From positions 36,023 through 100,022 of the forward strand of contig DATJXB010000067.1 in the NCBI GenBank assembly GCA_035500755.1: DNA of 64,000 nt, given 5' to 3'. The notes beneath the pieces were generated by a model. That model saw only the letters and a list, made by a program, of their open reading frames with translations. It was not told the DNA's origin and did no database searches. Position numbers and translations under genes: made by a program. This DNA is from Thermoanaerobaculia bacterium. GTDB taxonomy: Bacteria > Acidobacteriota > Thermoanaerobaculia > UBA5066 > Gp7-AA6. Shown here in pieces: positions 28,194 to 31,040 of this stretch; position 1 is the stretch's first letter; every line of letters begins with the position of its first letter.

Positions 28194-28952
28194 GTGAAAA
28201 GCGCTGTTTTAGGGCTCCTGACGCTCGCCGGAGCAGCCGTGCTCGCCGCCTCGCCGGGCGACGAGCGGGTGTACGCCTCGCACCTGATGGTGGATCAGGA
28301 AGTCACGGTGGCGGCCCGCATCACGGGCATCATCGACACGATCCTCGTCGACCGCGGCAGCGCCGTGACGCAGGGCCAGGTGCTCGCGACGCTCGAGGCG
28401 AGCGAGTACGACGCGGCGATCCGGCAGGCCAGGGAAGACATGGACCTGAAGAAGATCGAGTACGAGCGGGCCGAATCGCTGGTCTCCTCGAGCGTCATGA
28501 GCGCCCAGGATCGCGACGAGAAGAAGGCCCAGTACCAGGTCGCCGTCGCGACGTGGGAGCGGGCCAAGGCGGTGCGCGACTACACCGTCATCCGGGCGCC
28601 CTTCGCGGGGATCGTCACGGAGAAGTACGCGCGCCTCGGCGAAAAGGTCATCGAGGACAAGAACGACCCGCTCTTCAAGATCACGGCGGTCGAGCCGCTG
28701 CTCGCCCGCGTGTACCTGCCGGAGGAGCAGCTCCTCCGGGTCAAGGTCGGGGACCGCGTCGAAGTGGTCGCGGATCGTTTCCCCGACGTGAAGACGAGCG
28801 GCGAGGTGCAGTTCGTCAGCCCGACCGTCGACGCCGCGAGCGGCACCTTCCAGGTGGTCGTGCGCGTCCGGAGGGACCCCGCCCGCACGGTGCTCCGGCC
28901 GGGCCTCGCCGTTCAGGTGCGATTCGCCCAGCCCGCGGCCGGGACGCGGTAA
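28194..28952 (+). CDS. HlyD-family / RND-type periplasmic adaptor (membrane-fusion-protein-like), short form with N-terminal signal anchor
   Basis: GTG start (VKSAVLGLLTLAGAAVLAAS...), then the biotin-lipoyl-like motif ...VAARITGIIDTILVDRGSAVTQGQVLATLE...IRAPFAGIVTEKYARLGE..., a short alpha-hairpin and a beta-barrel domain. No cognate pump gene adjacent. Confidence 0.7.
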   Translation: MKSAVLGLLTLAGAAVLAASPGDERVYASHLMVDQEVTVAARITGIIDTILVDRGSAVTQGQVLATLEASEYDAAIRQAREDMDLKKIEYERAESLVSSSVMSAQDRDEKKAQYQVAVATWERAKAVRDYTVIRAPFAGIVTEKYARLGEKVIEDKNDPLFKITAVEPLLARVYLPEEQLLRVKVGDRVEVVADRFPDVKTSGEVQFVSPTVDAASGTFQVVVRVRRDPARTVLRPGLAVQVRFAQPAAGTR

Positions 28953-28968
28953 CGCCGGCCGACGGGCC

Positions 28969-29673
28969 ATGGCCGGAAAGCCGCGCTCCTCGGCCCGTCT
29001 GCGCACGACGCTCGACCGGGTCCTCGTTCACGACGTCAAGAACGTTTCCTTCCGCCTGCGGCTGCTGCTGTCCAATCTCGACGAGCACTGGGACGATCCC
29101 CAGTTCCGGGAGACCGTCAAGGAGCTGCTGGCTTCGACGGTCGAGCGCCTCGAGCAAGCCGTCGGGCGGCTCTCGACCGACGAGGACGCCGTCCTCATCA
29201 AGGTCTCGCTCGACGTCAACGGCCTGATCCACGAGGTCGTCGCCCGGCCGCCGCGGCGGCAGCGTCCCGGGGCCCGGGCGGCCCCGGCGCGCCTCGCCCT
29301 CGGACAGGTGCCCCGGATCTGGGGCGACCCGTTCTACCTAGGCGACGCCTTCGCGAGCCTGCTCGAGAACGCGGCCGAGGCCGCCGGTCCGGACGGCCGG
29401 GTGCTGGTGCGGACGTTCGCGACGGGCTCCGGCCGGCGCGCGCGCGTCGTGGTCGAGGTCATCGACAACGGATCCGGGATGACCCAGGAATTCCTGCGCG
29501 ACCGCCTCTTCCGGCCGTTCGAGACCACCAAGCCCGAGGGCGTCGGGCTCGGTCTGGCGACGGCCAGCCAGATCGTGCGCTTCCACCGCGGGACGATCCG
29601 GATCCTGTCGCAGCCGGGCGGCGGCACCCTCGTGCGCTGCGCGTTCCCGGCGGCCGCGGAGGCCTCGCCGTGA
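28969..29673 (+). CDS. Soluble sensor histidine kinase (HisKA + HATPase_c, essentially no sensor domain)
   Basis: 234 aa: H-box VLVHDVKNVSFRL; ATP-lid motifs ...ENAAEAAGPDGRVLVRT...VIDNGSGM...GVGLGLA. Confidence 0.8.
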   Translation: MAGKPRSSARLRTTLDRVLVHDVKNVSFRLRLLLSNLDEHWDDPQFRETVKELLASTVERLEQAVGRLSTDEDAVLIKVSLDVNGLIHEVVARPPRRQRPGARAAPARLALGQVPRIWGDPFYLGDAFASLLENAAEAAGPDGRVLVRTFATGSGRRARVVVEVIDNGSGMTQEFLRDRLFRPFETTKPEGVGLGLATASQIVRFHRGTIRILSQPGGGTLVRCAFPAAAEASP

Positions 29674-31040
29674 GCGGGCCGCCCGGCCGGCTGGTGATCG
29701 TCGACGACGACGCGTTTCTGCTCGAGCAGCTGACCTGGGCGCTCAAGGGCAAGTTCTCGGTGGCCTCGGCGCGCGACGCGACGCAGGGCAAGGCCCTCTG
29801 CGAATCGGAGCCCGATCTCTATCTCTTCGACCTGCGCCTGCCGCCGTCGAACCAGGTCCGCGAAGGGCTCGACCTGCTGCGCCACGCGCGGCGGCGCGAT
29901 CCCGACGCGACCGTCGTGATCATGTCGGGCGAAGGGGAGCGGGCGCACGCGCTCGAGGCCGTGGCGCTCGGCGCGTTCGACTTCTTCCAGAAGCCGGTCG
30001 ACGCGGCCGAGCTTCTGCTGATCCTGAACCGCGCGCTCGAGCGCCGGCGGCTCGTCGTGGAGAACCGGGAGCTTCGCCGGGAGGCGGGCGCCGTCGCTCC
30101 GAGCGCCGCGAGCGCGATCGTCGGCGCGAGTCCGGCGATGAAGCGGCTCTCGAAGGAGATCGAGCGCGTCGCGCCGAGCGACGCCACGGTCCTCCTGCAG
30201 GGGGAGAGCGGCACCGGCAAAGAGCTCGTCGCGCGGGCGATCCATGCGGGGAGCCCGCGGCGCGACCGCGCCTTCGTGGCGGTCAACACGGCGGCCCTGC
30301 CGGAGTCGCTCGCGGAGTCGGAGCTCTTCGGCCACGAGAAGGGCGCGTTCACGGGCGCGGTCGCCTCGCGGCCCGGTCGCTTCGAGCTCGCGCAGGGGGG
30401 CACGCTCTTCCTCGACGAGATCGGGACGCGTTCCCCCGCGATTCAGGCGAAGCTCCTGCGCGCGATCGAGAGCCGAGAGGTCGAGCGCGTGGGAGGCCGG
30501 GGCTCGATCGCCGTGGACTTCCGGCTGATCTCGGCGACGAACGAGGACCTCGAGGCTCGGGTCGCCGACGGAGGCTTCCGCGAGGACCTCTATTACCGCA
30601 TCAATACGATTCCGATCGCGATCCCGCCGCTGCGGGACCGGTCAGGCGACGTGGCGCTGCTCGCCGGGCATTTTCTCGAGCGCGTCTGCGCCCGTGAGAA
30701 CCTGCCGCGCAAACGCCTCTCCGCGGCGGCGCTCGCGCGCCTCCAAGCGCACCCGTGGCGTGGGAACGTGCGCGAGCTCGCGCACGCGGTGGAGCTCGCA
30801 GTGCTCTTCTCGGATGGCGTCGAGATCGGCGAGGAGGATCTGCCGCGGAGCCTTCGCGTGGAAAAGGCGTCTCCGCCGTCCGGCGACGAGAAGGGCTACG
30901 CCGCTGCCGTCGAGGAGTTCGAGCGCAGGCTCTTGAAGGACGCCATCGCCGCCGCGGGAGGCGTGAAGGCAGAAGCTGCCCGGCGGCTCGGGCTCGACCC
31001 GAACCAGATCAAGTACCTGTGCCGGAAGTTCGGCCTGTAG
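29670..31040 (+). CDS. Sigma-54-dependent response regulator (NtrC/Fis family: REC + AAA+ sigma-54 activator + HTH)
   Basis: GTG start overlapping the kinase stop (GTGA). Receiver Asp in YLFDLRLP. Walker A GESGTGKE; sigma-54 contact motif GAFTGA present (EKGAFTGAVASRPGRFELA); C-terminal Fis-type HTH. Confidence 0.9.
   Translation: MSGPPGRLVIVDDDAFLLEQLTWALKGKFSVASARDATQGKALCESEPDLYLFDLRLPPSNQVREGLDLLRHARRRDPDATVVIMSGEGERAHALEAVALGAFDFFQKPVDAAELLLILNRALERRRLVVENRELRREAGAVAPSAASAIVGASPAMKRLSKEIERVAPSDATVLLQGESGTGKELVARAIHAGSPRRDRAFVAVNTAALPESLAESELFGHEKGAFTGAVASRPGRFELAQGGTLFLDEIGTRSPAIQAKLLRAIESREVERVGGRGSIAVDFRLISATNEDLEARVADGGFREDLYYRINTIPIAIPPLRDRSGDVALLAGHFLERVCARENLPRKRLSAAALARLQAHPWRGNVRELAHAVELAVLFSDGVEIGEEDLPRSLRVEKASPPSGDEKGYAAAVEEFERRLLKDAIAAAGGVKAEAARRLGLDPNQIKYLCRKFGL

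Follow-up and report, generated by a model that had tools for sequence, protein, structure and literature searches.

A conserved circuit in Thermoanaerobaculia combines a PrsK/PrsR-derived sigma-54 switch, a leader-plus-repeat peptide family, and a triple-HlyD/M50 module

How does a histidine kinase with almost no sensor domain obtain its signal, and what does it control? This question is raised by a 64-kb stretch of contig DATJXB010000067.1 from a Thermoanaerobaculia bacterium (~70% GC; the whole stretch is called the window here), where such a kinase is encoded between a short HlyD-like adaptor and a sigma-54 activator. The initial annotation of this cassette proposed that the adaptor perceives a periplasmic signal for the kinase. 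Gene calls based on codon-position GC (GC3 frame) and translations placed three co-oriented genes exactly at positions 28194 to 31040, where the cassette had been located, and the three were shown to form one operon. As a whole the earlier interpretation is partly supported. It overlooked the output of the circuit, a peptide gene with its own sigma-54-dependent promoter, and this changes the purpose of the cassette, which is one arm of a module of seven genes and their cis elements spanning 28145 to 36733 (Table 1). The feature is a conserved, unannotated circuit of soil bacteria in which a triple-HlyD/M50 module and a new peptide family, marked by a leader and hypervariable repeats, are combined with a PrsK/PrsR-derived sigma-54 switch. 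We give an even chance to the reading that this module makes, processes, and probably exports a leader-plus-repeat polypeptide and that the adaptor is a subunit of the machine that does so.

The output became apparent from the DNA behind the activator gene. The GTG start of this gene overlaps the TGA stop of the kinase gene as GTGA, and its product carries a Walker A motif at residue 178, GAFTGA at 225, and an HTH_8 domain, in agreement with the coupled kinase-activator pair described in the initial annotation. A region of 660 bp separates the activator gene from the next gene and holds cis elements and a small gene. The putative activator sites in this region follow the family consensus GGTTGAGAAAnTCAACC, which is kept in a MAFFT alignment of 32 upstream regions. 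In the window, their right half-sites, TTCAACC and TTCATCC, begin 23 nt apart, and 82 nt lie between the end of the second and the -24 element of the sigma-54 promoter. TGGC-N7-TTGC has only 3 matches in the 64 kb, and TGG(C/T)-N7-TTGC precedes the peptide ATG by 43 to 50 nt (in one case 60 nt) in almost every one of the ~60 copies of the peptide gene; the sole copy that breaks the pattern, at locus L057, has an 8-nt spacer. Because the sigma-54 promoter has a fixed position, the upstream sites are conserved beside the activator's own gene, and PrsR and the PEP-CTERM genes offer an analogy, the activator very probably drives the peptide gene. Sequence scans found no further sigma-54 promoter before the adaptor operon or the STAS operon, and Rfam gave no known RNA family across 27000 to 38600. 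Elsewhere in the window, a second near-perfect sigma-54 promoter (TGGCAC-N5-TTGC, 44039 to 44053, plus strand) lies 44 nt upstream of an open reading frame (44097 to 47018) for a 973-amino-acid (aa) protein with CarboxypepD_reg and outer membrane beta-barrel regions.

PrsK and PrsR were proposed to regulate single-gene operons that depend on sigma-54 and encode secreted PEP-CTERM proteins (PMC1569441), and for one PEP-CTERM-type gene the dependence on RpoN was demonstrated by experiment (PMC9850573). They give the best NCBIfam matches for both signaling proteins of the window. Of 67 families, TIGR02915 (PrsR) is the best for the regulator, which it matches over its full length (positions 1 to 443 of 445), and the kinase matches C-terminal positions 482 to 679 of TIGR02916 (PrsK), although both scores stay under the family cutoffs (439.4 bits versus 502.6 and 131 bits versus 300, respectively). 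The logic is also the same: a sigma-54 activator is proposed to act through an enhancer-like upstream motif on single-gene operons whose secreted products are small or of low complexity and bear a sorting signal. However, the window kinase lacks the entire transmembrane and GAF sensor half of PrsK, and the sorting signal of the window peptide would be N-terminal, whereas that of PEP-CTERM proteins is C-terminal. In the annotated part of the window we found neither a PEP-CTERM motif nor an exosortase or PrsT.

The peptide encoded by the small gene consists of a conserved leader of ~40 aa, MANEVKIRLTDAQKAKIKEATGKDLPEIHVESFGSTPAVS, and ~11 tandem AKSMR(S/A) hexapeptide repeats. It belongs to no Pfam or NCBIfam family, and its database matches are all "hypothetical." The gene was found in 56 loci. 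The leader is 47 to 78% identical across loci, and the tail is always a tandem repeat whose unit varies by genome: AKSMRA, AQKAMK, TNSPR, ATK, ANTPR, GRAAGKSIA, APLKANMK, EEGLR, AKDLS, SADTSIE, and AGDQEALR are among the units found. Repeat periods range from 3 to 18 aa, and the tails are rich in Ala, Ser, Arg, Gly, and Lys. They are 35 to 165 aa long, of low complexity, and highly charged, with a net charge above +3 in 41 of 57 peptides (typically ~+20 to +36) and below -3 in 14 of 57; whole peptides measure 77 to 209 aa. Four loci (L030, L033, L041, and L042) have two copies, arranged in tandem downstream of the regulator and differing in tail length. In L030 and L041 both members of the pair use the same repeat unit, and in L041 and L042 each copy has an exact match to the sigma-54 promoter. 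An open reading frame on the opposite strand (31293 to 31544; 83 aa, GC3 of 0.94) could mislead gene callers; we rejected it as an artifact of the repeat, as it is the plus frame that has the leader, the Shine-Dalgarno sequence, the promoter, and the terminator. None of the database proteins matching the leader is longer than 79 aa, and many leave the repeat frame, so the family is probably under-called in public data.

We then have to ask what feeds the switch. The kinase open reading frame is the longest possible and cannot be extended upstream, and only ~7 residues precede the DHp helix. Its AlphaFold2 model contains a DHp hairpin (helices 8 to 40 and 44 to 70) and a CA domain and nothing else, and neither this model nor hydrophobicity analysis gave a hydrophobic, transmembrane, or membrane-associating segment. 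The description of the protein as a kinase with almost no sensor domain is therefore borne out, and DHp is the only domain besides the catalytic one. The sequence is 100% identical to that of a protein from a metagenome-assembled genome of Thermoanaerobaculia (Acidobacteriota). In a profile search, alignments to solved kinases begin at residues 11 to 18, and Pfam places HATPase_c at residues 120 to 228. The H-box, HDVKN, contains His21, and H21, N134, D166-x-G168-x-G170, and G191-x-G193-x-G195 are invariant among 25 homologues. Among 1.8 billion cluster representatives, the nearest relatives outside the family are PrsK-type proteins of ~700 aa, matched at their C terminus only; the same search returned a few further kinases of ~234 aa. 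Since the kinase has no input domain, its input must come from a partner. A kinase without a sensor domain of its own is also found in BceS, which is embedded in the membrane and contacts the ABC transporter BceAB there. Like the BceS/BceAB type of "flux-sensing" system, the window kinase is sensor-less and is encoded together with transport-type proteins that could supply a signal; it differs in being fully soluble, and its physical link to the transport proteins is conjectural.

The closest candidate for such a partner is the adaptor. The initial annotation took it for a membrane-anchored HlyD-like protein without a pump partner. The second part of this description holds: there is no RND, ABC, or MFS pump and no TolC in or adjoining the cassette, and neither in the window nor in related loci is the adaptor encoded with an inner membrane transporter of the RND, ABC, or MFS type. 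The anchoring, on the other hand, is doubtful. The N terminus has a short and poorly conserved hydrophobic stretch (only ~9 to 12 hydrophobic residues in orthologues) and no lipobox Cys, and it looks more like a cleavable signal peptide than an anchor. The predicted cytoplasm-exposed part would comprise a few nonconserved residues at most, or none after cleavage of the signal peptide. The protein matches HlyD_D23 (9e-25) and HlyD_3 (6e-19) in Pfam and TIGR01730 (RND_mfp) in NCBIfam (149.6 bits, cutoff 94.9, model positions 19 to 245 of 322). In its AlphaFold2 model (32 orthologues, pLDDT 76), a lipoyl domain is followed by a hairpin with helices of ~28 residues each (70 to 98 and 104 to 129) and a beta-barrel, and the best Foldseek match is MexA (1vf7, TM 0.66). 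The adaptors of tripartite pumps (MexA/AcrA, MacA, and EmrA) share this lipoyl, hairpin, and barrel architecture, the hairpin length is near that of MexA, and by score the window adaptor is a member of TIGR01730. Unlike the pump adaptors, its model stops after the beta-barrel, so that the membrane-proximal domain is absent, as are a lipid anchor and an adjacent transporter, and it is always encoded with the kinase and the regulator. The ~120 orthologue clusters are ~250 aa long throughout, and none contains an RND-MFP_C domain. Pipelines annotate these orthologues as "efflux RND transporter periplasmic adaptor subunit," and this label is probably misleading.

Conservation of the neighborhood was determined by scanning 185,579 species genomes with a kinase alignment, which gave 79 loci, and by tblastn with the window proteins; gene presence was counted in 61 Acidobacteriota loci and only where the flank was sufficient. 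The adaptor is directly upstream of the short kinase in 61 of 61 loci, the regulator is present in 57 of 57, M50-HlyD in 50 of 51, and GAF-HlyD and STAS in 49 of 49 each. The two upstream neighbors (52 of 60), a downstream proline iminopeptidase (22 of 49), and a downstream DUF692 gene (21 of 46) are less regular, and the divergent loci L047, L051, L061, and L063 have core genes only. Kinase matches in other phyla (among L060 to L079) are never accompanied by the adaptor (0 of 16), and a regulator homologue follows in 12 of 16; with 29 to 36% identity across the kinase core, these appear to be PrsK-type kinases. The adaptor is kept beside the kinase in four remote lineages represented by metagenome contigs (36 to 47% identity for the kinase and 37 to 46% for the adaptor), so that the co-occurrence extends beyond close relatives. 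An adaptor gene not conserved with the kinase/regulator pair would have refuted the initial proposal, and the data clearly show the opposite. In these lineages the regulator follows wherever the contig extends, and the two with enough contig also have the promoter and the peptide gene. Loci L096/L097 encode the adaptor (37%), an FHA-GAF-PP2C phosphatase, the kinase (40%), and the regulator (49%), followed by upstream sites, TGGCAAGCCGCTTGC, and a peptide MPDETFIKLTDEQKEQMKKATGQEHEEIKVETVG...(AAKRV)n; the pair of activator sites in L097 is similar to that of the window. Loci L099/L100 have the adaptor (43%), the kinase (36%), the regulator, CGGCACGGTCCTTGC, and then MDKPKGVTMKLTDKQRSQ..., and a sigma-54 promoter is present in L097 and L099. 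In L101 and L104, the adaptor is directly upstream of the kinase. As they are shared with remote lineages, the adaptor, kinase, regulator, sigma-54 promoter, and peptide gene form the oldest core. The phosphatase of L096 (2939 to 4594; 551 aa, with FHA, GAF, and SpoIIE-type PP2C domains) interrupts the adaptor-kinase gene pair. Its presence, along with a STAS protein in the window module, hints at partner-switching control of the sensor-less kinase; an RsbW-type kinase and a PP2C are both absent from the window.

The other arm of the module is an operon that is convergent to the cassette. A link to two more HlyD-domain proteins had been suggested, and both exist, on the minus strand, and are kept while the flanks drift. 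Counting the adaptor, three HlyD architectures (GAF-HlyD, M50-HlyD, and HlyD-only) are encoded within 8.2 kb. M50-HlyD matches Peptidase_M50, PqqD, and HlyD in Pfam, and its HExxH motif is HEMAH at residue 216. It scores 177 bits with daptide_HExxH (NF041824, cutoff 300) and 44 bits with YydH/LiaK (NF058609), and its N-terminal domain matches the PqqD structure 3g2b in a profile search (E = 4.5e-5). Homologues on plasmids are annotated as "PqqD family peptide modification chaperone" or "M50 peptidase." The HlyD part of GAF-HlyD is closest to that of M50-HlyD and to the ~620-aa HlyD class of proteobacterial modules. We considered the Rosetta-stone idea that GAF-HlyD is the split-off sensor of PrsK, in which transmembrane, GAF, and kinase parts are joined, and rejected it: there is no PrsK-specific similarity at an NCBIfam E of up to 10, and the GAF region gives only NifA, MadS, and NorR GAF matches, so the likeness to PrsK is kept as an analogy of domain class. 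The STAS protein exceeds the cutoff of TIGR00377 (69.6 bits versus 53.45). Across loci L001 to L059, the identity of M50-HlyD to the window copy is bimodal. It is 73 to 84% identical to the window protein in the 6 tabulated loci that have the same A(K/Q)xMRA-type hexamer and at most 55% identical in 31 others, while kinase, adaptor, regulator, and GAF-HlyD are still ~70 to 79% identical in several of the 31 loci with other repeat types. The divergence of M50-HlyD is greatest in its HlyD part (from 65% to 40%), and the other module proteins change smoothly. This pattern suggests co-diversification, or allelic replacement, of the protease and the tail of its cargo.

This protease recalls the leader peptidases of ribosomally synthesized and posttranslationally modified peptides (RiPPs), such as daptide MpaP and YydH/LiaK: a membrane HExxH protease region is combined with a PqqD-like recognition domain, and the candidate substrate has a conserved leader and a variable core. 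The window protein differs in its below-cutoff score and in the fusion of the protease to an HlyD domain, and the "core" of its candidate substrate is a long tandem repeat. No modification enzymes, of the daptide or any other kind, are found in the conserved core module.

Relatives without the kinase place this operon in a wider context. A module of GAF-HlyD, M50-HlyD, HlyD-only, and SecA_DEAD proteins was described in 2015 by Kamneva, Poudel, and Ward as functionally uncharacterized, with a proposed relation to type I secretion (PMC4452313). Literature searches on M50/HlyD/PqqD proteins, DUF3467, and LEPR-XLL gave nothing functional beyond that paper. The same three HlyD architectures are present in the window: cytosolic GAF plus HlyD, M50 membrane protease plus HlyD, and HlyD/biotin-lipoyl only. 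Proteobacterial members, which tblastn detected on plasmids with the window M50-HlyD (E = 1e-36, 27% identity over 463 aa), are found beside large repeat proteins and sometimes TolC. The order in Thalassospira is a giant LEPR-XLL protein, DUF3467, HlyD (622 aa), M50-HlyD, a short adaptor (287 aa), and TolC. In Pseudosulfitobacter, a giant Ig-domain protein and a short adaptor are encoded divergently, and DUF3467, HlyD, PqqD/M50/HlyD, and a SecA_DEAD translocase come next; Variovorax has a giant tandem-95 repeat protein, TolC, an adaptor, HlyD, and an M50 peptidase. Two giant proteins begin with (I/F)EPR(I/V)LLSAD, and those of Thalassospira and Pseudosulfitobacter match the LEPR-XLL model NF012209 (28 and 35 bits). 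Azospirillum and Phyllobacterium plasmids have M50-HlyD alone or with a single HlyD protein, and therefore the triple set is not universal. The window module differs from that of 2015 in several respects. SecA_DEAD (searched for by tblastn with the SecA_DEAD protein of the module), DUF3467, and the outer membrane factor are absent from the window and the 79 related loci, and STAS stands in the place of DUF3467. Moreover, the gene for the HlyD-only protein has been relocated to the operon of a two-component system, a leader-plus-repeat peptide of 77 to 209 aa replaces a giant protein of 4,000 to 16,000 aa as the putative cargo, and the cargo gene has a dedicated sigma-54 promoter.

A profile of the leader also finds weaker matches among metagenomic peptides of 45 to 55 aa, with the pattern xRIELTxEQKAKIREATGK..A.EL..EELE(E/D)R(I/V)(A/S)P. 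At least two of these wider leader-like peptides (P0174, P0175, P0178, P0182, P0184, P0192, P0194, and P0198) adjoin GAF or GAF-HlyD genes. P0178 is encoded directly upstream of GAF-HlyD (646 aa), HlyD-only (328 aa), and M50-HlyD (683 aa) genes with no two-component system, and P0198, from Gemmatimonadales, is followed by two small genes and then, as the third gene downstream, by a GAF protein. Another weak match, P0187, sits between rpoD and dnaG and was set aside as probably unrelated. The ELEERIAP motif of the wider peptides is loosely reminiscent of LEPRxLL, the signal found in the giant cargo proteins. Membership of the window leader in LEPR-XLL was rejected: neither it nor P0174, P0178, or P0198 matches NF012209 (24 positions) at an E of up to 10, and by eye there is just a loose E-x-R-[IV] resemblance. 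Because the leader family and the M50/GAF/HlyD set occur together both with and without a two-component system, and because the identity of M50-HlyD tracks the repeat type, the PqqD-like/M50/HlyD fusion probably has the peptide as its substrate.

Taken together, these data lead to the following favored model. The phosphorylated activator would bind the two upstream sites and start sigma-54-dependent transcription of the peptide gene. In M50-HlyD, the PqqD-like domain on the cytosolic side would bind the leader, and the intramembrane HExxH protease would remove it, after which the repeat tail would be passed to a periplasmic assembly. This assembly, made of the HlyD domains of M50-HlyD, GAF-HlyD, and the short adaptor, would probably dock on a TolC-like channel encoded elsewhere, with the short adaptor as a periplasmic subunit of the export machine. 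Cytosolic partners within the module may supply the kinase input, the candidates being the STAS protein and the GAF triplet of GAF-HlyD, and cargo synthesis could thus receive feedback from the export machine, whose state would partly depend on the adaptor. Most likely, the adaptor provides this machine with its third HlyD subunit, because it is HlyD-only like the third component of kinase-less modules, its best match among module HlyD domains is the short-adaptor class (50 bits versus at most 35 for the others), and it has no RND-contact domain. A direct sensor function for the kinase is unlikely, as the two proteins are predicted to lie in different compartments.

Several points weigh against this model. 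Export, cleavage, and regulator binding are all deduced from sequence. Neither the window nor the 10 kb around each of the 79 loci contains a SecA_DEAD or ABC ATPase or a TolC. Weak scores underlie the placement of the adaptor in the short class, the LEPR-XLL model finds no match in the small peptides, and the GAF domains have no specific similarity to the GAF region of PrsK. The co-variation of M50-HlyD and repeat type could partly reflect phylogeny. Furthermore, L096/L097 have no M50-HlyD or GAF-HlyD within ~4 kb, which keeps a sensing role of the adaptor alive: since these loci retain adaptor, kinase, regulator, and peptide, the link of the adaptor with the two-component system is closer than its link with the M50 machine.

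Such a role would mean that the adaptor is a co-sensor, perceiving a periplasmic ligand, possibly the exported peptide itself, and thereby altering kinase activity. The constant neighborhood of adaptor and kinase, in all 61 Acidobacteriota loci and across the divergence of the four remote lineages, argues for this, as do the persistence of the L097 unit without adjacent M50-HlyD or GAF-HlyD and the need of the kinase for partner-derived input. We still regard it as unlikely. The kinase lacks a membrane segment and the adaptor, with its signal-peptide-like N terminus, has no conserved cytoplasmic tail, which makes direct contact impossible. HlyD-only homologues also occur in modules that have no kinase, including those of PMC4452313, where their place between or beside GAF-HlyD and M50-HlyD fits a structural subunit. 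The original proposal that the adaptor is the direct periplasmic signal perceiver of the kinase therefore finds no support in its stated form; as the kinase is predicted to be cytosolic and the adaptor periplasmic, signaling between them needs a transmembrane go-between. An indirect variant could provide one, running from the adaptor through the transmembrane helix of GAF-HlyD to its GAF domains and the kinase, or through STAS/PP2C; the first of these routes overlaps with the model that we favor.

The combination of a conserved leader with a hypervariable core is also the classic logic of ribosomal natural products, and the locus could encode a RiPP-like pheromone or bacteriocin that is cleaved, perhaps into its repeat units, and exported; the HlyD/GAF proteins and the kinase would respond to this strain-specific extracellular product in a positive feedback loop. 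In agreement with such autoinduction, the M50 protease, a relative of the daptide and YydH/LiaK leader peptidases, carries a PqqD-like domain of the RiPP recognition element (RRE) type, the class of M50-HlyD co-varies with the repeat type, and a two-component system adjoins the precursor gene and is predicted to control it. This explanation appears doubtful to us, as the conserved core has no modifying enzyme, no receptor-type sensor domain, and no evident immunity gene, and charged, low-complexity tails of 35 to 165 aa are unlike known pheromones and bacteriocins.

It is quite improbable that nothing is exported at all. In that case, M50-HlyD would be a site-2-type signaling protease in a partner-switching circuit, the HlyD domains would sense the state of the envelope, and the repeat protein would stay inside the cell, for example to bind nucleic acid or polyphosphate as histone-H1-like Ala/Lys repeat proteins do. 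The STAS protein with its DSSGLG motif, the PP2C phosphatase inserted in L096, and the lack of an ATPase or TolC nearby are consistent with this idea, as is the richness of many tails in Ala, Lys, and Arg. However, the acidic tails in 14 of 57 peptides argue against nucleic acid binding, the neighbors of homologous modules in proteobacteria include giant surface-type repeat proteins, TolC, and a SecA-like translocase, and three HlyD paralogues with hairpins of AcrA/MexA length suit a conduit better. That the adaptor serves a distant efflux pump and merely happens to lie next to an unrelated two-component system is hardly credible: NCBIfam does put it in the generic RND_mfp family and its orthologues carry efflux annotations, but the neighborhood is kept in 61 of 61 loci and over 36 to 47% sequence divergence, the RND-contacting domain is missing, and no locus contains a pump.

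One may go further than the favored model and see in this locus a self-contained circuit to make, export, and monitor strain-specific repeat polypeptides. An export machine of a new kind, made of RRE-M50 and three HlyD proteins, would work without an ATPase, and the leader, as a distant functional analogue of LEPR-XLL, would direct the hypervariable charged tail to it. Adaptor and GAF-HlyD would report occupancy or assembly across the membrane to the soluble kinase, possibly via STAS/PP2C, and so couple transcription of the cargo to its export, and the rapid turnover of repeat types with a matching change in M50-HlyD would reflect diversifying selection. We consider this extended view rather unlikely in its entirety. 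If it is true, selection would diversify the repeat type in a context such as kin discrimination, matrix identity, or antagonism.

Table 1. Genes and cis elements of the module in the window
Feature	Position	Strand	Description
Candidate sigma-70-like promoter, TCGACA-17-TAGCAT	28145..28173	+	Upstream of adaptor operon; consensus scan, 1 site versus 0.2 expected
Adaptor, 252 aa, GTG start	28194..28952	+	Signal-peptide-like N terminus, lipoyl domain, alpha-hairpin, beta-barrel
Histidine kinase, 234 aa	28969..29673	+	Cytosolic, PrsK-like core; DHp hairpin with His21 and CA domain
Response regulator, 456 aa	29670..31040	+	PrsR-like; REC, Sigma54_activat, AAA_lid, and HTH_8 (Pfam)
Two putative activator sites	31043..31082		Directly 3' of regulator stop; palindrome-like; MAFFT alignment
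Sigma-54 promoter, TGGCCC-N5-TTGCG (-24 GG/-12 GC)	31164..31179	+	46 nt upstream of peptide ATG
Small unannotated gene, 114 aa	31210..31554	+	Open reading frame with GGAGGG Shine-Dalgarno sequence; proposed cargo/output
DNA tandem repeat, 18 nt, 10.6 copies, 82% matches	31358..31548	+	Encodes the tail; Tandem Repeats Finder
Intrinsic terminator, CGCCCCGC-TTCG-GCGGGGCG then T9	31574..31602	+	Strong; sequence and terminator scan
M50-HlyD fusion, 717 aa	31700..33853	-	PqqD/RRE-like cytosolic domain, multipass M50-type intramembrane metalloprotease, periplasmic HlyD
GAFx3-HlyD, 820 aa	33895..36357	-	Three cytosolic GAF domains, one transmembrane segment (558-576), periplasmic HlyD; Pfam, NCBIfam, hydrophobicity
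STAS protein, 111 aa	36398..36733	-	DSSGLG phospho-serine motif; first gene of convergent operon; Pfam 3e-16

The genes around the module have a different history of conservation. Downstream, at 38031 to 40278 on the plus strand, lies a bufferin-like RiPP cluster. Its first open reading frame (38031 to 38495) encodes a Cys-rich precursor with a signal peptide and a repeated CKGxNSCKGKGGC motif, the likely start being the internal MKKGDL...; it is followed by a DUF692 enzyme of the MbnB/TglH/ChrH family (38556 to 39449; Pfam 4.6e-108) and its DUF2063 partner (39430 to 40278). The DUF692/DUF2063 pair was considered for the core and rejected, as it occurs in 21 of 46 loci, in close relatives only, and has its own Cys-rich precursor. 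Upstream, a 118-aa protein with no family match (27807 to 28163, minus strand) is encoded divergently from the adaptor operon, next to a DGQHR-domain (DndB/DpdB-like) protein (~26530 to 27660, minus strand; TIGR03187, 118 bits) whose identity across loci, 87 to 99%, is unusually high. These two genes (26530 to 28163) are syntenic in 52 of 60 loci and absent from the divergent ones. Farther away, an EAL-domain protein (23078 to 24190), LemA (25878 to 26471), and an M48 peptidase (24904 to ~25800) are kept in close relatives only.

What does this circuit mean for the family? Thermoanaerobaculia and related uncultured bacteria have a new, unannotated peptide family whose members join a conserved leader to a hypervariable tail of tandem repeats, and gene callers tend to truncate or miss the corresponding genes. 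The kinase of the window is a clean natural case of a histidine kinase that has been pared down to its catalytic core, and it may be useful for studying how accessory proteins control two-component systems. The triple-HlyD/M50 module, known since 2015 as a set of genes without a function, now has a small candidate substrate, a dedicated sigma-54 promoter, and a two-component system, and its substrate, signal, and output are thereby open to testing.

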